Source: a virus
Strand: one strand, 5' to 3'
Virus genome (UHGV): UHGV-0307316
DNA length: 64,000 nt
In this document: positions 3,947-59,611 of the stretch, piece after piece
How the letters are laid out: each line of letters opens with the position of its first letter
Position numbering within the stretch: the stretch's first letter is position 1
Program-made: the position numbers and the translations under genes
Notes under the pieces: model-generated
What the model was told of the DNA's origin: nothing
The model's input: only the letters and a program-made list of their open reading frames with translations
Database searches by the model: none

Positions 3947-4150
3947 ATGGCTATTATTAATGGTTTAACCATTGAAACTACACACATCAAAGATATCAAA
4001 GTTGGTGATATAGTCCTTTCCCACGGCGTAGAAAAAACTGTCACTGCAAAGGATATCAAAGAGGATTCTTTCATGGGTAGGACTCTCTTCGGTGATTCTT
4101 ATTGCTTAGGCTATCTTGCAGTTTTAAAAGTTGTCAAAAATAACAAATAA
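3947..4150 (+). CDS. hypothetical early protein
   Basis: ORF behind class-B cassette. Confidence 0.55.
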   Translation: MAIINGLTIETTHIKDIKVGDIVLSHGVEKTVTAKDIKEDSFMGRTLFGDSYCLGYLAVLKVVKNNK

Positions 4151-4155
4151 AGTAC

Positions 4156-4191
4156 TTTACAAGGGGCTTAAAAGTTGATAACTTAAGCCCC
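4156..4191 (+). promoter_or_regulatory. class-A promoter cassette (variant)
   Basis: TTTACA plus IR GGGGCTTAA/TTAAGCCCC. Confidence 0.4.
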
Positions 4192-4236
4192 AGATAAAGA
4201 ACTTTACCACTAAATCCTAAACTGGAGATTCTAAAA

Positions 4237-6994: not shown

Positions 6995-7243
6995 ATGGCA
7001 ACTATCCGCGCTACTGTCAATGCCTATGGCTGTTATACTCTGGACGTTAAATTCGATATTGGTGGAACTGATGAGTGTTTTTCATTAGTGAAGACAGTTA
7101 TCAAACAAGTTATTCCAGATTATAACCCTACTGATGACTTCTGGAAAGATGCTGTAAAAGAGGCATTAAACGACGAGCATCACTATCATTACTGGGGTGA
7201 CTTGATTGTTTCCCTGTACTACAATAAACAAGGTTACAACTAA
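6995..7243 (+). CDS. hypothetical early protein
   Basis: ORF behind class-B cassette; followed by terminators. Confidence 0.6.
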   Translation: MATIRATVNAYGCYTLDVKFDIGGTDECFSLVKTVIKQVIPDYNPTDDFWKDAVKEALNDEHHYHYWGDLIVSLYYNKQGYN

Positions 7244-7283
7244 TCGACGCAACGGGGCTAAATAGCCCCAGATACCTGAACAG

Positions 7284-7331
7284 CCCCTATTTAGTATGGA
7301 TTCGATAGAATCTATCTCATAGGGGCTTTTT
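7284..7331 (+). terminator. rho-independent terminator ending early (+) block
   Basis: Stem CCCCTAT/ATAGGGG followed by TTTTTT; preceded by hairpin GGGGCTAAATAGCCCC at 7251-7268. Confidence 0.6.
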
Positions 7332-7339
7332 TACGTCTA

Positions 7340-8880
7340 TCGAATCCTTATACAATCTCTTTCCATCACCTTTCCAGAATCTATCTCATACCTTAAAAGC
7401 AATAACTCTATAGTCTACTCTATAACCTCTTATCAAATCAACTTAAATAAAAGCCCATAACCCGAAAGGGAAGGGCAACCGTTTAAACGCTCTATAAAGC
7501 TCTATAACAGCCTTATCAACCTAACTTAAGGGATTGCATTAACTCACCCTTAAAAGCTCTTTACAGGGCTTTATAGAGGCTTAAAAGAATCTTATAAGGG
7601 TGTAAGCTTTATTACCTCGTTAGCTATCTTGTGAACTACTAAAAAGGGCTTGTTAGTGTCTTAAAAGTATGTTATAGGGGCTTAAAAGTTACGTAAAAGA
7701 GGCTATAAAGTTACGTAAATACTAGCCCCCTTAACATTTTCTTAACATTTTCTTAACAATTTCTTAACAATCCCTACATAGTTATTCTTTTAAGGCACTT
7801 GTTAGCAACTTGTTAGCACCTTGTTAAATCTCTGTTAATACCACGTAAAAGCCTTGTAAGAGTCTTTGACATAGCCTTAAAAGCTCCTGTAAAGCCCTAT
7901 AAAGAGTTATCTGTACAGTTGGGGTGTAACTACTAGGAAGAGACTTAAAAGAGCTTATAAAGAGCTATAGAGAGCTTTTAAGAGGTATGTTTAGAGAATC
8001 ACTAAGAAAGGAAAGGAACGATAAGGAAGAAGTAGTGACCATGTTAACAGCTTGTTAAAAAGATTAAATACTTGTTAGAAACTTGTTAATTATCTTAACA
8101 AGATAACTCTTAAAAATTAACTTGTTAGCTCTTGTTAGTCATCTGTTAAGATTCTGTAAAGCCTATGTATCAACTGTTAAGAAACTGTTAAGCCCTTGTT
8201 AGTTCTGTTAAGAATCTGTTAAGACCTTTGAAGAGTTGTTAAGAGCTTGAGAGAGCTGTTAAGAGATTGTTAAGGATATTTTAAAATTTTGCAAAGTACT
8301 TGTAAGGGAGCTGTTAAGGGCTACCAAGCAGATATACATCTTCTACAGATATTTTTCAGTTCCTTCAAAGACCCTAAAAAATGACTTGATAGTCCTATTT
8401 TATAAAAATTTTAAAATTCTGAATAATTACCTAGACAGTCTTTTAAAAATACAGGTAATAACAGGCTTATAAGATACCTTGTTAGTACCGTGTTAGACCT
8501 TGTGAGATAAGGTCTGTAAAGATATTCCTGTTAAGTTTGTTAAAACAGTCTATATAGAGGCTTAGTAATACCTAGTGAACACCTATAGAGGGTATCATAG
8601 GTAACATAGGGATTAAGAGGTGTATAGGAGCTTCTAAGAGGGTATAGAGAGATGGTTAAGGTGATTGTATAGGTTGTTTAGAAGGCTTGTTAGAAGAGTG
8701 TTTAGAAGGGCTATTTAGAAGGGTTATACAGAGGGCTATTAAGACCACTAGATAGTTACTAAGATACTATATAGTACTATATAACTATATAGAGAGTAAG
8801 ATTAAGAAGGTTGTTAAGAAGGATAGATATTTTATTCACATATGATGGTGACCAAGAGGTTGGGACAACCGATAAAATTT
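7340..8880. repeat. non-coding iteron-rich region (candidate replication origin)
   Basis: No ORF over 60 aa; about 30 copies of YTGTTAR and related motifs, many at 10-11 bp phasing; tandem TTTTCTTAACA x4 at 7738-7780. Confidence 0.6.
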
Positions 8881-8885
8881 TATAA

Positions 8886-8913
8886 AAATTAAAAAGCCCC
8901 CAATTAAGGAGGC
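8886..8913 (-). terminator. rho-independent terminator ending minus block
   Basis: Minus-strand hairpin GCCTCC..GGGGGC followed by T-run. Confidence 0.55.
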
Positions 8914-8925
8914 TCTTAAGATATT

Positions 8926-9549
8926 TTAAATCAGTGTTTCCAGAACTGTCTTCAGTGATGACTTGGTTGTCTGATAAAAATGAGTAAATCCATTGTTGTT
9001 ATCGAATATCTGCATCATGATATCATCACCCTTGATTGGGTAAACTCGGATATCATAGTGAAAACCATTAAAGACACAAGAGCCATTACAGAATGCACTA
9101 AAGTCATCAACTGAGATATACTCTTCATGTCCTGTGATTTTTATACAAACGCCTTTACTCGGTCTCTTAGGGTTGATATCTTCCATCACAGACATACTCT
9201 GTCCACCAAGAGATACCATAGTGACCACTTTACGGTTCTTCTGTTTAAAGTACATCTTAACTTTCTGCAAAGTGTCTTCATAGAATGGATAAGACTTCTC
9301 TACAAAGATTCCTTCAAGTGGCTCTTTACCATTTTCAACTTCTCGGTTATGCCGTACTGCAAAGATAATTTGTTCGAACCAGTCAAGATTTTCTTCGGAG
9401 AGTGCTTCCCGAACATCCTTCCAGTCAAGTACTAAGTAGTTACCTTCAACTTCTTTTAAGTTATCTTTTTCCATATCTATCACACCATTATCGTAAAACT
9501 TGATATTCTGGTACTGCGAATTTATTACTATTATTCTTGATGAGGTCAT
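8926..9549 (-). CDS. hypothetical protein (207 aa)
   Basis: Long ORF, last gene of minus block before terminator at 8886-8913. Confidence 0.55.
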   Translation of the reverse strand: MTSSRIIVINSQYQNIKFYDNGVIDMEKDNLKEVEGNYLVLDWKDVREALSEENLDWFEQIIFAVRHNREVENGKEPLEGIFVEKSYPFYEDTLQKVKMYFKQKNRKVVTMVSLGGQSMSVMEDINPKRPSKGVCIKITGHEEYISVDDFSAFCNGSCVFNGFHYDIRVYPIKGDDIMMQIFDNNNGFTHFYQTTKSSLKTVLETLI

Positions 9550-16570: not shown

Positions 16571-16798
16571 GGCAGACCTACAGCTTTAAGTAAGATGGTA
16601 CAGTAATCCATACAACAAGTCAAGAACTATTGCAAGTTAAAAAAGTTGTTGACAAAGTACTTGACAAGGTGTAGGCTTATAAATACTTAGAAGATAACTT
16701 AAAAGGTTCCTCTAAAAAGGCTATTTAAACAGATATCTTTCTGGATATCTATCTTTTATCTTAAAAGCCTTTTAAGAGGTCTTATAAGAGGCATACCA

Positions 16799-17170
16799 AT
16801 GAAAAACAGAACAAACAAAGGCCAGTTTAAAAAAGGCCAGTCTGGAAACCCATCTGGAAGACCAAAAGGCTCTCGTAACAAAAGCTCACTTGTAAAAGCT
16901 CAACTGACCATTGATAATTCTGCTGAGTTTGCTGCAAAGTTGTTTGAGGCGGTTGTTACAAGGGATGCTGCTAAGCTTGCAGAGTTCGGTTTGACGACTG
17001 ACGATGTAAACCTGAAGTCGATGATGGAGGCTGGTAAAACCATCATGACTCACTCAGCAGGTGAGATGAAAGCGATTGCAGCAGACACTAAGAAGACCCC
17101 TGATAATGGTGGTCAGTCTCAGACAGATAACAAACCAACGTTCTCTGCTGTAGCGACTCTCAAAAAATAA
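16799..17170 (+). CDS. hypothetical protein with basic Gly/Pro/Lys-rich N-terminus
   Basis: ORF; N-terminal KGQSGNPSGRPKG motif suggests nucleic-acid binding. Confidence 0.5.
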   Translation: MKNRTNKGQFKKGQSGNPSGRPKGSRNKSSLVKAQLTIDNSAEFAAKLFEAVVTRDAAKLAEFGLTTDDVNLKSMMEAGKTIMTHSAGEMKAIAADTKKTPDNGGQSQTDNKPTFSAVATLKK

Positions 17171-24840: not shown

Positions 24841-26442
24841 ATGGACTTAAATGCTGTTAAGCAGAAGCGAGTGGAAGATGTTAGGAAAGTCCTAGCTGGA
24901 GAGTTGGGGCTTTCTGATGAAGTAAAAGAAATTATTAAATCATTCGGTAAAGACCCCTCTAAATTCCTTCCAACTCAAATTCTGACTTTATTAAGATACA
25001 CACCAGACCAAGTTCGCCTTATCTTTAAATTGATGACTGATAAGAACTATGTAGCCCCTCAGCCGGGTTCTCAAGAGGTCTTTTTAAATACTAATGCTGA
25101 CTTGGTACTCTATGGTGGTGCTGCTGGTGCTGGTAAGACTGCCGCATTGTTAATGGACTCTTTAAGATTTATTGAAGACCCTAACTATAATGCTGTATAT
25201 TTCCGTCGAAATACAACACAGTTACAAGGTGGTTTATGGCCTGCTGCAAAGAAACTATTTGGTAAGTTTGGTGGAATTCCTCACGAGCAGAAGATGACTA
25301 TCACATTCCCTTCTGGGGCAACTATCAAGTTTACCTATCTAGAACTTGAAAAGCACGCTGAAGGTCATCAGGGTATTGAATACTCAGCTATTTACTTTGA
25401 CGAAGGCACACACTTCTCTGCTTCACAGATTTCATACCTACAAACCCGTCTACGTTCTGGTGCTGAAGGCGATTCATACATGAAGATTTCCATGAACCCA
25501 GACAGAGACCACTTTATTTACGATTGGGTAGAGCCATTCTTAGATGAAGAAGGCTACCCAGACCCTGAAAAATGTGGTCGTATTCGTTGGTATGTGATGA
25601 ACGATGGTGTGATGGTTTCTGATTGGGAGAGAGACAAGATTCTTGAAATGTTCCCCCTTGAGATTCCTCAAACATACACCTTTATTTCTGGTACGATTGA
25701 TGATAACCCAATCCTTGACTTCTTAGAGCCTAAGTACCGTGGTAAGTTGGAAAACAACACTCCTGTAAACGTTGCAAGACTTCGTTTCGGTAACTGGAAG
25801 GCTCGTGCAGAAGGTTCAAACTATTGGCAAAGACAATGGTGTGAAATTGTTGATTCACTCCCAGAAGATGTATTTGATGTTAGAGCATGGGACTTAGCAG
25901 CAACTTTACCATCTGAGATTAACCCTAATCCAGACTGGACAGCAGGTGTTAAGATGGGTAAATCTAAAAAAGACGGTTGCTATTATATCATTGATGTAGT
26001 AAGATTTAGAGATAGACCCTCTGGAGTCGAAACACAAATTAATTTGACTGCTGAAAGTGACGGTAAGCGAACTGGTATTTTTATCCCTCAAGACCCAGGC
26101 GCTGCTGGTAAATCCTACGCAACATCCCTCATCAGGAAACTTGCCGAGAAAGGTTATCGAGCAAGAGCCAAACCAACAAATAAAGATAAAGTTACCCGCT
26201 TTGCGGGATTTTCTGCTGCTTCTGAAGCTGGACTTGTAAAAGTCTTGAGAGGTAGTTGGAATGAAGCTTACTTTCAAGAACTTGAAGGCTTTTGTGGTGA
26301 CGGTAAAACTAAAGATGACCAAGTGGATGCTACCAGTGATGCTTTCAACAGTCTTAACGAAGTTAAATTATTCAAGCCACCATCAATGGGTGCTCACACA
26401 GATTTAGTGAGAGGAAACCCATATGAGGGGCTTAGACGTTGA
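24841..26442 (+). CDS. terminase large subunit
   Basis: Walker A-like LYGGAAGAGKTAALL near N-terminus, C-terminal nuclease-like acidic residues; GGAGGTG RBS before ATG 24841. Confidence 0.8.
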   Translation: MDLNAVKQKRVEDVRKVLAGELGLSDEVKEIIKSFGKDPSKFLPTQILTLLRYTPDQVRLIFKLMTDKNYVAPQPGSQEVFLNTNADLVLYGGAAGAGKTAALLMDSLRFIEDPNYNAVYFRRNTTQLQGGLWPAAKKLFGKFGGIPHEQKMTITFPSGATIKFTYLELEKHAEGHQGIEYSAIYFDEGTHFSASQISYLQTRLRSGAEGDSYMKISMNPDRDHFIYDWVEPFLDEEGYPDPEKCGRIRWYVMNDGVMVSDWERDKILEMFPLEIPQTYTFISGTIDDNPILDFLEPKYRGKLENNTPVNVARLRFGNWKARAEGSNYWQRQWCEIVDSLPEDVFDVRAWDLAATLPSEINPNPDWTAGVKMGKSKKDGCYYIIDVVRFRDRPSGVETQINLTAESDGKRTGIFIPQDPGAAGKSYATSLIRKLAEKGYRARAKPTNKDKVTRFAGFSAASEAGLVKVLRGSWNEAYFQELEGFCGDGKTKDDQVDATSDAFNSLNEVKLFKPPSMGAHTDLVRGNPYEGLRR

Positions 26443-51052: not shown

Positions 51053-51382
51053 TTAATCTGCCAACCTTAAATTAAAATTAACACCAAATTTTTCACATAC
51101 TTCCAACATATACTCAAGGGAGACATTACCAGTGAGATGAATTATGTTGGACACACGAGCCTGAGAGATACCACAAATTTTAGCAACTTGCTCTTGAGAA
51201 AGACCTCTGGATTTAATCTCTCTCTTAAAACGATGTGCAACGAAGTCTCTCATTTCGTCTACATCCATTGGACAAATATAACTCTCCATTTCAGCCTCTC
51301 TATCAGCCTCCCAATCATCTTGTGGGGCATAAGGGTCAAAAACCTCATTCATCTTTCTTCTTCCGTTTGCGTGAAGTATCAA
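51053..51382 (-). CDS. HTH XRE-family transcriptional regulator
   Basis: LSQEQVAKICGISQARVSNI helix-turn-helix motif. Confidence 0.6.
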   Translation of the reverse strand: MILHANGRRKMNEVFDPYAPQDDWEADREAEMESYICPMDVDEMRDFVAHRFKREIKSRGLSQEQVAKICGISQARVSNIIHLTGNVSLEYMLEVCEKFGVNFNLRLAD

Positions 51383-56142: not shown

Positions 56143-56658
56143 TCAACTTAGTTTTGCAAACTCTCCGTGGAGTTTTACAGCAGCTTCACAGTAAGCTTTA
56201 TGGGCTTCTTCTTCCGTTGTGTATGTTCCTATATGTATAGTCTTACCATTATGGTTAATCTGGGCTACCCACTTACCAGACTTGCTTCTACTTGTGCCTT
56301 TTAAGTTTTTTGATGTTCTAGGTTGTCTCCTATTAGACATGTTCTGTTCTTTTGTGGCCTCTCTTAAATTGTTCCAAGCGTTATTCAAGCCATCTCCATC
56401 TTTGTGGTCAATGTGTTTATCAGGCCACTTGCCTGTCATCCAGAACCAAGCAATTCGGTGATTACCTGTCCTGTATCCTAAAATCTGTGTGTGCATATAC
56501 ACACCAGACCTTGTGCGCTTAATTGCTCCGGCTTGGCTTCCAATAACCACCCTACTACTATGTGGAGGTCTACCAATCCATGTTAAGACCCCTGTTTCGG
56601 GGTCATAATCTAACCAAGACTTTAACTGTTCATGTGTGAATCCACAATCTCTCATCAA
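56143..56658 (-). CDS. HNH homing endonuclease with AP2-like DNA-binding domain
   Basis: HIDHKDGDGLNNAWNNLR HNH motif; C-terminal GKWVAQINHNGKTIHIGTYTTEEEAHKAY AP2-like motif. Confidence 0.75.
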   Translation of the reverse strand: MMRDCGFTHEQLKSWLDYDPETGVLTWIGRPPHSSRVVIGSQAGAIKRTRSGVYMHTQILGYRTGNHRIAWFWMTGKWPDKHIDHKDGDGLNNAWNNLREATKEQNMSNRRQPRTSKNLKGTSRSKSGKWVAQINHNGKTIHIGTYTTEEEAHKAYCEAAVKLHGEFAKLS

Positions 56659-59354
56659 TGTACCTCATACCAGCTCTTACCAACCTTACCTGTGCCAGTT
56701 ACAAGCGTCTCACTCTTCAAACCTAAATTCTTAGATGCCTGACCATACATCCAGTCAGTTATGGCTTTAACTTCTTGAGTCATACTTTCTGGGCATTCCC
56801 AACTGTTTTCATCGTGGTATGCCAGCAAAAGCCTAGCACCGATTGCTGGTTTTCGTCCATTTAATTTTGTCAATCCTTCTTCACATGCTCTTCTACAAGC
56901 AAGATTAATTGCCTCATTTTGAATCTGAGCCTCTGAACCCATGAGCAAATAATTCAATAACTTATGTGGAGATTTACACCACAACCAAGCTCCAGCAACC
57001 TTTACAAAACCACCTTTAGAGATTGCAGCAGTCTTACCAAATACCTCTTCAAGTGCCTTTTTAGTTGCTTTGTAGTCAGCTTCCAAGTCATCTAGCAGCT
57101 TTTTAATTTTAGGCAAACGAATAAAGTAAGTCTGTTTAGTCAGCGCACCTTCCTGAGTAGTTGCAGCTTTAATCGTCTTAGCAAACTTCTCATCACCTGC
57201 ACCGAACAGCAGTGCATAGATACCATTCTTAGCTTTCTTACGACCCTTGCTAATCTCATGAAGAAGATTCTCATCCTGAGTAGCTCGACAAGTCAAGATG
57301 TCCTGCTCATCGTTCAAGTTAAAGTAAATACTGTTCAGTGTATGTGCATCAGTCCCTGAATAGACAACGTACAGGTCATTCTCAGAGTCATAGCGAAGGT
57401 ACTTATCAATCTCTGGGTTGAGGTACTCATCAAAGTGTTTACAGTAATAGCGTCCATCTTCTTGACGAATGAACTCAATTTCTTCTTTACCTTGCGTTAC
57501 CGCTTTGGTGAAGTCTTTATCACCCATAAAGTTACAAAGAAGAACTAGCTGGGCTGAGTTCATGTCTACAGAGACAACGTTAGTACCTTCCTCACAAATC
57601 CACACTGCCCTCATTGGTTCCCCATAGACAGCAGCACCAGACGGTACGTTTACAATACCATACTGTGTCATACGTCCAGTTGAAGTACCAAACACCATTG
57701 CACCAGCACTAAGGCGACCATCAGGACGAATCTGGTTCAACCAACCTTTTTCATCATCCTTTGAGTTCTCAATAGTTCTGCGTCGGTGCATCAAAGTGTA
57801 GTATTTAGCAATCTTCTGTCCAAGCTCACCTTCAATCGTATCGTAAGATGATTCAGTAAGTTTTGGTGAAGTACGGATTAAGCAAGGCTCAAGCAAATCT
57901 GTGTACTTCTTCACAGACCAGTTATGCTCAATGTACTGGACGCCTTCGTGTTCAACATAACTCAAACCACACCGCTCAACCATTTCCTGCCACTTAGGAT
58001 GCTTTGTAATCATCTTTTTATTGTCTTTGAAACGACAAACTTTGACAGGGCGACCATCAGAGTCTTTCTTGTAGTTCCAGTCATCTGGAATCCAACCAAC
58101 TGATTTCAAGTAGTCTTTAACAACTGCTACCTGAGTCATACGAGAAACTTCAAACTCAATTGGTGTATATGGTGCATCAATCAAACCTGTGTAGCGACTT
58201 GACTCAAGTTCAAAGTGGTTAACAACGTGGCTGTTATAGTACTTCACAGTTTTGACTGTTTTTACTGGCTTCCAGTCTTTGCATTTCTTACCAATCTTTG
58301 CGTTCAACTCATTGCAAATTGCACGAGCATCCTTCATTGCTACAAAGCCTTCCTTGTACTCTTCACCAGTTACAGAGTTGGTTGGTGTATAGCAATTCCT
58401 TTTTTCAATGTTAAAAATCTTTGTAGTTGGCTTACCAAATGGTTTGATTTCGTATGTCTGCATCTCGCCATTACGTACCTGCTGACGATACTTTGTCTTA
58501 GGGTACTTGGTAATTCTTTTCAGTCCATCTGCATGACCAAATGTTTCAACATACTCATTCCAAGCTTTTGCAAACTCTTCTCCAGTGACTTTACCTTTGG
58601 TCTTAATAGTTGGAGGTAGATGTGGTTCAACCTCTGAAGCAAGCTCATTAGTCAACTTGTCAAGTTCCTTTACATGGAACTCCATAAGCTCTTTATCAGC
58701 TTTCCAACCATTGATAGCTTGTTGACTCATCCAGAAAGATGTTTCTTTAGCTCGCATGTAGGTTTCATAAGTGTCTATGCCACACTTCTTAAGCTTGAGA
58801 TACTCATTATCAAGTGCCCGTTTAGTTTTGGCGTTAATACGGATATCTTCTACAACACGAGTGAAGATTTCTGCATTCCACACACCCCAATGTTCAATCT
58901 CTGGTTTACGAACACCAACACGAGCACCCCATGCAGCCAAGCCATGAGCACCTTTATAACCCTTTGGAGTTGGTCTATCCATCCACTGAACACGAGACTG
59001 GATAAGAGAATCCTGAAAGAAATTACTCCACGGCTTACACTTTGGATTATCAAAGTTCCATAAATCCGGTGCAATGTGATTGAAAACCCACCAGTCATAA
59101 CCTAGACCATTATGAATGCAAAGACGTTTTGCCTTTAACGCAAACTCAATACCTTCACGTAAGCCACCCTTAATGTACTTGGTATACTTGTGACCGAGGA
59201 TAGGCTCATCTGTAAAGACCCATACAGGTGGCTCTTCATCGTCAGATTTATAGTCTGCGAAAGCCATTACGTGCACTTTAGTGAACTCAAGGAGTAAACC
59301 ATCAGTTTCTGTATCACCAACTAAATGTAAGTTTTTAAAATCTACGTTTTCCAT
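56655..59354 (-). CDS. DNA polymerase, family A, with 3'-5' exonuclease domain
   Basis: Exo I VGDTETDGL; polymerase motif B-like KNGIYALLFGAG and motif C YHDE; start moved to ATG 59354 with GAGGGAG RBS. Confidence 0.8.
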   Translation of the reverse strand: MENVDFKNLHLVGDTETDGLLLEFTKVHVMAFADYKSDDEEPPVWVFTDEPILGHKYTKYIKGGLREGIEFALKAKRLCIHNGLGYDWWVFNHIAPDLWNFDNPKCKPWSNFFQDSLIQSRVQWMDRPTPKGYKGAHGLAAWGARVGVRKPEIEHWGVWNAEIFTRVVEDIRINAKTKRALDNEYLKLKKCGIDTYETYMRAKETSFWMSQQAINGWKADKELMEFHVKELDKLTNELASEVEPHLPPTIKTKGKVTGEEFAKAWNEYVETFGHADGLKRITKYPKTKYRQQVRNGEMQTYEIKPFGKPTTKIFNIEKRNCYTPTNSVTGEEYKEGFVAMKDARAICNELNAKIGKKCKDWKPVKTVKTVKYYNSHVVNHFELESSRYTGLIDAPYTPIEFEVSRMTQVAVVKDYLKSVGWIPDDWNYKKDSDGRPVKVCRFKDNKKMITKHPKWQEMVERCGLSYVEHEGVQYIEHNWSVKKYTDLLEPCLIRTSPKLTESSYDTIEGELGQKIAKYYTLMHRRRTIENSKDDEKGWLNQIRPDGRLSAGAMVFGTSTGRMTQYGIVNVPSGAAVYGEPMRAVWICEEGTNVVSVDMNSAQLVLLCNFMGDKDFTKAVTQGKEEIEFIRQEDGRYYCKHFDEYLNPEIDKYLRYDSENDLYVVYSGTDAHTLNSIYFNLNDEQDILTCRATQDENLLHEISKGRKKAKNGIYALLFGAGDEKFAKTIKAATTQEGALTKQTYFIRLPKIKKLLDDLEADYKATKKALEEVFGKTAAISKGGFVKVAGAWLWCKSPHKLLNYLLMGSEAQIQNEAINLACRRACEEGLTKLNGRKPAIGARLLLAYHDENSWECPESMTQEVKAITDWMYGQASKNLGLKSETLVTGTGKVGKSWYEVH

Positions 59355-59611
59355 TTTTACTCCCTCTAAAATCATTAACCTCATACATTACTGCAAAAAA
59401 TTATAAAAAGCAAGTTGACAATGCACTTGACAAGGTGTTAATCTTTGCGAAGTGGGTTTTTACTTAAAAGGTTACTTAACAGTTTAACTATACAGATACT
59501 TTAAATCTCTTAAAAGATTATTTAATAGCTTTTAAAAAGCTTTAAAGTATAACGTATAGAATACGTTAAGATAAAAGATTAAAACTTAATAGTTACTTAA
59601 AAGAGGCTTAC

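Follow-up and report, generated by a model that had tools for sequence, protein, structure and literature searches.

A repeat-rich, gene-free region in a Felix O1-like myovirus genome as the probable site of its chromosome ends

Results

A gene-free stretch between two convergent terminators

The window analyzed here, a 64,000-nucleotide stretch of phage DNA, is from a Felixounavirus (Felix O1-like myovirus); it matched 257 records in BLAST, the best of them at approximately 92% identity. Within it lies a stretch of about 1.55 kb (7333-8885), bounded by two convergent terminators, in which no ORF exceeds 31 aa. The ORF scan ran from the stop of a plus-strand gene at 7243 to a minus-strand gene at 8926-9549, and the longest ORFs in between were 31 and 30 aa. 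This agrees with an earlier sequence-only reading, which had called the region non-coding and whose bounds (7340-8880) were essentially right. Some Felixounavirus records call tiny spurious ORFs in the homologous stretch.

The terminators that had been proposed on each side were both found, as a hairpin followed by a T-run (Table 1). The sequence between 7245 and 7340 folds with a minimum free energy of -39.4 kcal/mol (z = -5.5); the stem of the plus-strand terminator is formed by AGCCCCTAT and ATAGGGGCT and is followed by TTTTTT, with a smaller hairpin just 5' of it at 7254-7269. For the minus-strand terminator, the folding energy was -15.2 kcal/mol (z = -2.9). Terminators are annotated at both homologous sites in ASO1A and wV8, and at the minus-strand site in Michonne as well. 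None of the ten flanking ORFs had a Pfam hit, and all belonged to PHROGs of unknown function. An Rfam scan of 7000-9200 returned nothing relevant (one sub-threshold match to a Phe leader, located on a terminator), and the matches from a promoter scan were all weak (9/12), most of them TTAACA sequences belonging to the repeats.

Table 1. Features of the gene-free region and the large terminase gene (window coordinates; chromosome ends placed by homology)
Feature	Position	Strand	Description
Intrinsic terminator	7282-7332	+	Two-tier hairpin, then T-run; ends the plus-strand block, predicted right arm of the virion chromosome
Left-flank array	7333-7724	+	Unique sequence, predicted to lie just inside the right end of virion DNA
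Left boundary box	7723-7736	+	TAGCCCCCTTAACA
DTR	7725-8325		601 bp, by homology; begins GCCCCCTTAACA, ends TGTTAAGGGCTACC
Reverse cluster	7730-7770	-	Four 11-bp CTTAACAnnnn units (TGTTAAG on the minus strand), at the extreme left edge of the DTR
Forward heptamer array	7797-8318	+	CTTGTTAG / CTGTTAAG; densest at 8040-8320
Perfect dyad	8082-8102		CTTGTTAA-TTAT-CTTAACAAG; a head-to-head pair of heptamers within the DTR
Right boundary box	8313-8324		TGTTAAGGGCTA; near-inverse of the left boundary box
Conserved box	8326-8338	+	AAGCAGATATACA; directly outside the right DTR boundary
Repeat-poor AT-rich spacer	8339-8475		8376-8475 is 78% A+T
Right-flank arrays	8476-8885	+	Unique sequence, predicted to lie just inside the left end of virion DNA
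Intrinsic terminator	8892-8917	-	10-bp stem and T-run, read from 8917 to 8892; ends the minus-strand block, predicted left arm of the virion chromosome
Large terminase subunit	24826-26442	+	PHROG 979 "terminase large subunit", E = 1e-233; enzyme expected to cut the DTR boundaries

Short phased repeats fill the stretch

The heptamer YTGTTAR occurs 29 times in 7333-8885, close to the 30 or so copies claimed previously, and 25 of these lie on the plus strand and 4 on the minus strand (binomial p = 1e-4). Its density is 18.7 per kb, against 1.1 per kb in the rest of the window; 1000 dinucleotide-preserving shuffles gave a mean of 1.9 copies and a maximum of 9. The phasing of 10-11 bp that had been noted was borne out as well: the gap between one TGTTA start and the next is 11 bp in 11 cases, other gaps being 9, 10, 20, and 31 bp, and self-matching of 4-mers at a lag of 11 bp was strong both in 7725-8325 (z = 32.7) and in the region as a whole (z = 26), with |z| < 3 in two coding controls. 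The segment 7725-8325, the direct terminal repeat (DTR) by homology, holds 23 of the 29 heptamers, 19 of them on the plus strand. In addition, octamers of the form CT[A/T/G]4AG tile the whole stretch (51 copies; 32.8 per kb versus 3.8 per kb outside).

These motifs are laid out in distinct blocks. The left flank contains 11 CT[ATG]4AG sites and a single YTGTTAR, with the octamers CTTAAAAG, CTATAAAG, CTCTATAA, and GTTACGTAAA at a pitch of 10-11 and 21-22 bp (lag-11 z = 7.3; lag-22 z = 8.1). GTTACGTAAA is present twice, and the left flank ends in a conserved GTTACGTAAA-N-GCTA that directly precedes the DTR in the boundary alignment. The adjoining cluster at the left edge of the DTR is the only one in reverse orientation, and pairs as an inverted repeat with 8163-8201 and 8257-8284 (77-86% complementary). 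Here, TRF detected the 11-bp tandem repeat CTTAACATTTT (period 11, 3.6 copies, 96% matches); the sequence-only reading had seen this repeat but set it slightly too far right, at 7738-7780, the TRF call running from 7730 to 7769. Two interruptions break the forward array: CTTAAAAG, CTATAAAG, and CTATAGAG units at 7870-7990, and purine-rich sequence at 7999-8035. In the right flank, a few TGTTAG and TGTTAAG units are followed by TATAGAGG, TTTAGAAGG, and ACTATATAG at a pitch of approximately 12-13 bp (lag-12 z = 7.1; lag-25 z = 5.0), and TRF reported repeats at 8475-8503, 8675-8744 (period 12 and 25), and 8765-8793, where ACTATATAG stands in about three copies.

The repeats are conserved across genera

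Column identity was computed across 10 relatives belonging to three genera. The region is 80-93% conserved among them, above the level of the flanking terminators. Identity is 63-66% over 7324-7403, 76-93% over the rest of the left flank (7404-7723), approximately 86% in the spacer at 8339-8475, and 82-95% over most of 8484-8843, with a single 40-bp bin at 72% (8724-8763); the perfect dyad sits in a block with 92% identity. Within the arrays, TGTTAR core columns are better conserved than spacer columns (85-92% versus 75-82%), and this holds for the distant genera as well (79-88% versus 64-70%). Indels between phages come in units of 11 bp: at 7730-7770, the window has four units where its relatives have three, an exact 11-bp indel in comparison with 10 out of 10 relatives. 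Erwinia phages keep the TGTTAAG motif even though the rest of their non-coding DNA cannot be aligned. With cores exceeding spacers in conservation and the motif retained across genera, the earlier suggestion that these are arrays bound by a phage DNA-binding protein is plausible.

Homology places the chromosome ends in the repeat region

Several relatives have a DTR at the homologous position. For UAB_Phi87, Bal31 digestion combined with run-off sequencing located a DTR of 608 bp (PMC4837284). The record of UAB_69 annotates a 618-bp DTR in the homologous non-coding stretch, extending 2 bp further on each side than the boundaries used here, which is 100% identical to the UAB_Phi87 sequence. Exact repeats at both record ends, starting with GCCCCCTTAACA and ending with TGTTAAGGGCTACC, were found in E9 (580 bp), whose record was opened by PhageTerm (PMC11737134), and in NBEco005 (651 bp); the record of Ro111lw, of which only the start was read, begins at the same left boundary, GCCCCCTTAACA. 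A DTR of 581 bp was also determined for Pr103Blw by PhageTerm (PMC8303462). The 601-bp sequence itself was found at 261 places in 235 records, meaning that approximately 26 records carry it twice. Identity over the DTR is 88-93% for UAB_Phi87, Ro111lw, nataliec, and ASO1B, and identity over the wider region is 87-90% for E9, NBEco005, and UAB_69. These Felixounavirus relatives share the boundary sequences and the position between the same genes, and differ from the window in lacking the one extra 11-bp unit at the left edge. Outside the genus, the Erwinia phage vEam_PM_21, a Kolesnikvirus, repeats the layout and the TGTTAAG motif: an exact DTR of 438 bp sits at the homologous place, at its record ends, and contains 17 TGTTAR, and the reverse-oriented copies that were mapped fall in its left quarter. 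Its left flank holds a different array.

The boundaries themselves are among the conserved elements. Both boundary boxes are invariant or nearly so in the 10 relatives, and both virion ends read G..CCC..TTAACA going inward. As the heptamers are reversed at the left edge and point forward towards the right, the two DNA ends resemble each other when read inward. The box directly outside the right boundary is invariant in the 10 relatives of three genera, and vEam_PM_21 has a recognizable counterpart, TAAGTAGATATACA, just past its 438-bp DTR. The same sequence is expected at both virion ends by homology with E9, NBEco005, vEam_PM_21, and UAB_69, and the ends appear to be fixed and sequence-defined, as judged from the shared record starts and ends, the invariant boundary boxes, and the Bal31-sensitive fragments and run-off sequencing reported for UAB_Phi87.

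Restriction data count in favor of this placement. From the DTR position, SpeI end fragments of 2749 and 4437 bp are predicted for UAB_Phi87, and 2819 and 4322 bp were published (PMC4837284), a difference of 70-115 bp; the published sizes imply 573 bp, versus the 608 bp given in the same paper. The identical 542-bp ends of the UAB_Phi87 record, which lie in a tRNA cluster, were considered as alternative termini and rejected as an assembly artefact: 87,603 - 542 + 608 = 87,669, which is the published genome size; ends at the record termini would give a 1.1-kb SpeI fragment rather than the published 2.8 and 4.3 kb; and the same laboratory annotated the UAB_69 DTR. Counting against fixed ends, "pac headful" packaging was reported for another Felixounavirus from PhageTerm (PMC13431587).

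Taken together, we put at roughly 80% the probability that this region is the concatemer junction, and hence contains the chromosome ends, of a Felix O1-like myovirus. The virion DNA would be linear, with a DTR of approximately 600 bp corresponding to 7725-8325. The ends were placed by homology, and the DTR is present only once in the window because the sequence runs through the junction, in a collapsed or concatemer-like representation. The "convergent transcription blocks" of the sequence-only reading, correct as to their terminators, would therefore be the two chromosome ends: in the particle, the minus-strand block (8926 onwards) would form one arm and the plus-strand block (up to 7243) the other, each transcribed towards its own end and stopping at its own terminator. 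As a feature, the chromosome end is already known, as it is recorded for close relatives. Literature searches for these repeats or for a Felix O1 origin found no paper, and the main text of the PhageMaP paper on Bas63 carries no report on this intergenic region.

Discussion

A candidate array for concatemer cutting and packaging

The repeats would most likely act as an array of protein-binding sites through which concatemers are cut and packaged, a role that has also been proposed for the CCTAAAG arrays at the terminal repeat of T7. The phased heptamers and flanking octamer arrays would together be bound cooperatively by a phage protein, of which the likeliest candidate is a DNA-recognition (small terminase-like) component. 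By marking the junction in replicated concatemers, this protein may position the large terminase, whose predicted cut sites are the conserved boundary boxes (left, TA^GCCCCC; right, GGGCTACC^AAGCAGATATACA). Since there is one repeat copy per junction and two are needed, the repeat would have to be duplicated, possibly as has been suggested for T7, where strand-displacement synthesis would copy the interval that separates the cuts. The TerL of UAB_Phi87 was reported to cluster in a clade of DTR-type terminases (PMC4837284). A small terminase subunit was not recognizable in this phage in Pfam and PHROG scans that included the ORFs around TerL, and the annotation of Bas63 likewise lists TerL and no TerS; no candidate binder or initiator was found by the same scans among the ten flanking ORFs and the ORFs around TerL.

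The closest analogy is with T7, in which terminase generates the ends by cutting concatemers at specific sequences. The CCTAAAG heptamer arrays of T7 are called SRL and SRR, and are not known to have a firmly established function. Read directly from the T7 sequence (V01146), three CCTAAAG lie inside the terminal repeat (1-160) and about nine at 175-345, all on one strand. Both systems have an exact short terminal repeat at both virion ends, a gene-free region, one-stranded A/T-rich heptamer arrays inside and beside the repeat, and a similar motif shape (CCTAAAG versus CTTAAAAG, CTGTAAAG, and CTGTTAAG here). However, the T7 region has no sequence homology to this one, its repeat is 160 bp rather than 600 bp, and its pitch is mostly 13 bp rather than 11 bp, whereas here the heptamers are concentrated inside the repeat and flip their orientation at its left edge. 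Moreover, the phage studied here is a myovirus without a phage RNA polymerase, so that the link between transcription pausing and packaging in T7 cannot apply as such.

Other DNA-recognition sites offer partial parallels. The pac and cos sites (SPP1 pacL/pacR, lambda cosB R) also have a set of short repeated boxes beside the position of cleavage, and these boxes are believed to align an oligomeric recognition protein or to be wrapped around it, but the sets comprise 2-4 boxes instead of dozens, and no small terminase gene is recognizable in the present phage. The centromere parC of plasmid R1 consists of ten 11-bp repeats, on which a protein filament forms along one helix face. It shares the 11-bp pitch and differs in its adjacent par genes: no parA/parM or parB/parR families were present among the neighboring ORFs here, and a strictly lytic phage such as this virulent myovirus has no need for partition. 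More tentatively, the array may be a platform for an unrecognized kind of packaging-initiation or end-binding protein, and this array might also double as a replication entry, either origin-like or recombination-primed; such a protein might form a filament or wrap on approximately 250-500 bp of DNA. The 11-bp-phased TGTTAAG array is conserved across Ounavirinae genera, lies largely within the DTR, and is mirrored at the edges of the DTR, and a small terminase is not detectable in these phages.

Alternative explanations for the arrays

The sequence-only reading had interpreted the region as an iteron-type replication origin. On such a model, an initiator bound to the phased repeats would open the AT-rich 8376-8475 and recruit the T7-like primase-helicase. 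The many phased direct repeats, shared with the origins of lambda (ori), P1 (oriR), and RepA-type plasmids, the adjoining AT-rich, repeat-poor stretch, and the strong conservation of non-coding DNA would all suit such an origin. Recombination-dependent replication can also readily enter at terminal repeats, and the secondary origins of T7 (phiOL, phiOR) lie right beside its terminal-repeat arrays, the phiOL promoter being annotated at nt 405 of V01146. Specific support is missing, however. Instead of the 17-22-bp iterons of lambda, P1, and plasmid origins, the cores are 7-8 bp at an 11-bp pitch, and even the longest repeat families are built up from such cores; the number of repeats differs as well. 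Neither a recognizable Rep- or O-like initiator gene nor a rep gene was found among the ten flanking ORFs by Pfam and PHROG, and DnaA boxes are not enriched (one 8/9 match, compared with 19 in the whole window). The stretch 8376-8475 ranks in the top four 100-mers of the window for A+T content but is tied for second with two others, and is hence not unique; the divergent region at 59385-59611, by the polymerase and primase-helicase genes, reaches 82% A+T. GC skew, which had been put forward as a check, merely mirrors gene orientation. Finally, the coincidence of the heptamer array with the DTR is predicted by the terminus reading, but not by an origin. We regard an iteron-type origin as unlikely; replication initiation might alternatively be an additional role of the chromosome ends.

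Still less probable is that the CT-N4-AG octamers bind a regulator or nucleoid protein (a phage XRE-type protein, or a host protein like H-NS, Fis, or IHF) without involvement in packaging, silencing or insulating the chromosome ends or shielding them from exonucleases. An XRE-type HTH protein is encoded at 51053-51382, and small clusters of CTTAAAAG/CTTATAAG octamers occur at divergent promoters around 16.7 kb and 59.5 kb. The perfect dyad and the 11-bp head-to-tail pitch, typical of winged-helix regulators such as PhoB/OmpR, point in the same direction. Yet the octamers are approximately 9-fold denser in the terminal region than elsewhere in the genome, those of the TGTTAAG subtype occur almost exclusively in the DTR, and no transcription unit starts here, there being only weak promoter-like matches, and terminators on both sides. 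That the repeats are satellite DNA with no function, produced by slippage during replication of a gene-free end, or that they encode a non-coding RNA, appears highly improbable. Copy number does change in exact 11-bp units between phages, and the region is without an ORF; but its conservation across three genera exceeds that of the adjacent terminators, motif cores outlast spacers, the motif survives in Erwinia phages with otherwise unalignable non-coding DNA, and there was neither an Rfam match nor a convincing promoter.

A T5-like injection-stop signal, guessed from the look of the sequence, was rejected, as BLAST identified a Felixounavirus. In T5-type phages, this signal is a repeat-rich non-coding stretch in the roughly 10-kb terminal repeat, which ends the first-step-transfer DNA; the terminal repeat here is 0.6 kb and free of genes, and the phage is not T5-like.

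Implications for Felix O1-like phages

The stretch would be better annotated as the physical genome ends, with a DTR at 7725-8325, than as an origin; most Felixounavirus records run straight through the DTR without marking it. Where the ends lie bears on the correct orientation of genomes, on the engineering and rebooting of these phages, which are in wide use for therapy and typing, and on assessments of transduction risk. The arrays, as a clean and strongly conserved candidate recognition site, may provide a handle for finding the DNA-recognition subunit of the packaging machinery, and would allow a general function of T7-style terminal heptamer arrays to be tested.

Repeat content of the gene-free stretch

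Between the stop of a + strand gene (7243) and a − strand gene (8926-9549), the longest open reading frame (ORF) was 31 aa, and the stretch is bounded on both sides by hairpins with T-runs (see table). The heptamer YTGTTAR was found 29 times in 7333-8885, with 25 copies on the + strand and 4 on the − strand (p = 1e-4 for the strand bias). This corresponds to 18.7 copies per kb, against 1.1 per kb in the rest of the window; in 1000 dinucleotide-preserving shuffles of 7333-8885, the mean was 1.9 and the maximum 9. Successive TGTTA starts were separated by exactly 11 bp 11 times, with other gaps of 9, 10, 20, and 31 bp, and 4-mer self-matches at lag 11 reached z-scores of 32.7, compared to |z| < 3 in coding controls. 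In addition, CT[A/T/G]4AG octamers tile the entire stretch (51 copies, approximately 9x background density). The ORF, hairpin, heptamer, and spacing results thus confirm the sequence-only reading's description of a gene-free, terminator-bounded stretch with phased YTGTTAR copies and an 11-bp tandem repeat.

Features of the terminal region and of other parts of the window discussed here
Feature	Position	Strand	Details
Two-tier hairpin with T-run	7282-7332	+	edge of gene-free stretch
Left flank	7333-7724		CTTAAAAG/CTATAAAG/GTTACGTAAA units; closes with conserved GTTACGTAAA-N-GCTA
Direct terminal repeat (DTR), placed by homology	7725-8325		601 bp
11-bp tandem repeat	7730-7769
Reverse-oriented CTTAACAnnnn units	7730-7770		n = 4; at DTR opening
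Forward CTTGTTAG/CTGTTAAG units	after reverse units		within DTR; densest at 8040-8320
Perfect dyad	8082-8102		among forward DTR units
Hairpin with T-run	8917-8892	−	other edge of gene-free stretch
Intergenic hairpin repeat, two copies	1480-1545, 4140-4205		ACTTTACA(g/a)GGGGCTTAAAAG...TTAAGCCCCAGATAAAGA
Divergent intergenic region	16650-16850		between − strand early block and + strand tRNA/structural block
tRNA cluster	18833-24396	+	26 genes, including Met x2, Gln x2, Lys x2, Ser x2, Leu x3
Uncharacterised ORF	24619-24819		66 aa; directly upstream of TerL
Large terminase subunit (TerL)	24826-26442		PHROG 979
XRE/Cro-type helix-turn-helix protein	51053-51382	−	109 aa; Pfam HTH_3, E = 6e-10
Divergent intergenic region	59385-59611		228 bp; between DNA polymerase gene (56655-59384, −) and + strand replication-gene block

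Two other intergenic areas of the window carry repeats. The octamers CTTAAAAG, CTTATAAG, and CTTTTAAG are common to the left flank and to the divergent region at 16650-16850, where 500 bp contain 7 CT[ATG]4AG sites. The two places may thus share a binding protein, or the motif may be promoter-associated. For the two-copy hairpin repeat, the counterparts in Felix O1 are the 57-bp direct repeats reported from between its early genes (PMC3185647).

Homology to the genome ends of Felix O1-like phages

The region matched 257 phage records, nearly all of Felix O1-like myoviruses (Felixounavirus, Mooglevirus, Suspvirus), with best matches of approximately 92% identity and 73-81% for Mooglevirus and Suspvirus. 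Several of these records have their ends inside the homologous region, and that of UAB_69 carries a 618-bp repeat_region labelled as DTR within the homologous non-coding stretch. Other depositors annotated no more than a repeat_region, terminators, or hypothetical ORFs of tiny size. The papers on the genomes of Felix O1 and wV8 do not discuss the region, and no descriptions of the repeat arrays were found in the literature searched.

The UAB_69 DTR sequence is 100% identical in UAB_Phi87, whose DTR of 608 bp was established by Bal31 digestion and run-off sequencing (PMC4837284). Terminal SpeI fragments predicted from the position of this DTR (2749 and 4437 bp) agree within approximately 100 bp with those published for UAB_Phi87 (2819 and 4322 bp). 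The UAB_Phi87 record (JN225449) itself has identical 542-bp ends, corresponding to window positions 22704-23245 in the tRNA cluster, which at face value would speak against a terminus in our region. This reading was rejected, as ends at the record termini would yield a 1.1-kb SpeI fragment, and 87,603 - 542 + 608 gives 87,669, the published genome size; the identical ends are therefore an assembly overlap rather than a DTR.

Exact repeats were also present at both record ends of vB_EcoM_E9 (580 bp), whose genome was opened using PhageTerm (PMC11737134), and of NBEco005 (651 bp). Both start at the same nucleotide as Ro111lw, GCCCCCTTAACA, and end in TGTTAAGGGCTACC; the comparison of Ro111lw covers its start. 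The 601-bp DTR query was found at 261 places in 235 records, so that approximately 26 records carry it twice, and terminal repeats of 581 bp have been reported for Pr103Blw (PMC8303462). A PhageTerm-based report of pac-type headful packaging in Felixounavirus SEP1 (PMC13431587) conflicts with 3 reports of fixed terminal repeats of approximately 580-610 bp in this genus (PMC4837284, PMC8303462, PMC11737134), and was treated as an outlier. Homology thus identifies the region as the DTR and genome ends, an identity recorded before for close relatives; the feature is of a known kind.

Layout and conservation of the repeats

Inside the DTR lie 23 of the 29 YTGTTAR copies. The box at one of its boundaries, TAGCCCCCTTAACA, is nearly the inverse of that at the other, TGTTAAGGGCTA, so that both DNA ends are alike when read inward. 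Beyond the right boundary, the invariant AAGCAGATATACA follows without a gap, and after it come an AT-rich, repeat-poor stretch and TATAGAGG/TTTAGAAGG/ACTATATAG arrays with a pitch of approximately 12-13 bp. All ten aligned relatives have 3 CTTAACAnnnn copies versus 4 in the window, the difference being an exact 11-bp indel, and a second such indel is found at approximately 7787-7797. The terminal-region arrays evolve by unit slippage.

Across the ten relatives, which represent three genera, column identity was 80-93% in the non-coding region, compared to 27-63% in the adjacent terminators. TGTTAR core columns were 85-92% conserved versus 75-82% for neighbouring spacer columns (79-88% versus 64-70% in the distant genera only). 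Erwinia phage vEam_PM_21 (Kolesnikvirus) could be aligned over only approximately 120 nt. Even so, its record ends, at the homologous position and next to the same boundary box, are formed by an exact DTR of 438 bp, and the homologous box TAAGTAGATATACA lies just beyond the right boundary. This DTR contains 17 TGTTAR copies, with the mapped reverse-oriented copies in the left quarter, and is flanked by a distinct TTCTAA array on the left (11 copies) and by GTTAAG on the right (8 copies). The core/spacer conservation and this layout indicate that the repeats are recognised sequence-specifically by a putative conserved protein, rather than being slippage debris.

Origin of replication or protein-bound array

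The sequence-only reading had interpreted the stretch as either an array bound by a phage protein, which stands as a plausible candidate, or an iteron-type replication origin, which nothing specific supports. The repeats are not of iteron size, no initiator gene adjoins the stretch, and DnaA boxes are not enriched in it. Ranked by A+T content, its AT-rich patch is in the top four of all 100-mers of the window but not first, and GC skew, proposed as a check, simply tracks gene orientation. Origin activity may nevertheless be a secondary function of the terminal region: secondary origins adjoin the terminal arrays of T7, and terminal repeats are natural sites of recombination-primed replication. 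The T7 record (V01146) gives nt 405 as the site of the phiOL promoter. The divergent region at 59385-59611 would be a more conventional place for an origin primed by transcription, or for an early promoter hub. It adjoins the polymerase and primase-helicase genes and reaches the highest A+T content of any 100-mer in the window (82%); two TTGACA boxes next to each other and three copies of the CTTAAAAG octamer are also present.

Proposed role in packaging

The region's identity as the genome ends is shown by homology, and the arrangement of the repeats and their conservation are also shown; a role of the arrays in packaging is our inference. As a platform for cooperative binding, they would mark the concatemer junction and place TerL at the boxes of the two boundaries. 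Each junction holds the repeat once, and this copy would be doubled when strands are displaced between two staggered cuts, a mechanism proposed for T7. The closest analogue of the arrays is likewise found in T7 (V01146), where CCTAAAG occurs 3x inside the 160-bp terminal repeat and approximately 9x just to its right, on one strand only and mostly 13 bp apart.

The match of TerL to its PHROG profile, which has 642 positions, begins at position 82. Neither a small terminase (TerS) nor another binder was recognisable in the flanking ORFs or around TerL; the ORFs flanking the gene-free stretch had no Pfam match and belong to PHROGs of unknown function, and TerS is absent from the listing for Bas63. 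The 66-aa ORF occupies the position upstream of the large terminase gene, a frequent site of the small terminase gene. The only recognisable sequence-specific DNA binder encountered was the XRE-type protein, whose gene sits in the nucleotide-metabolism/replication block. The search for the missing packaging component that recognises DNA in these phages could reasonably start from the repeat arrays, a target of modest interest.
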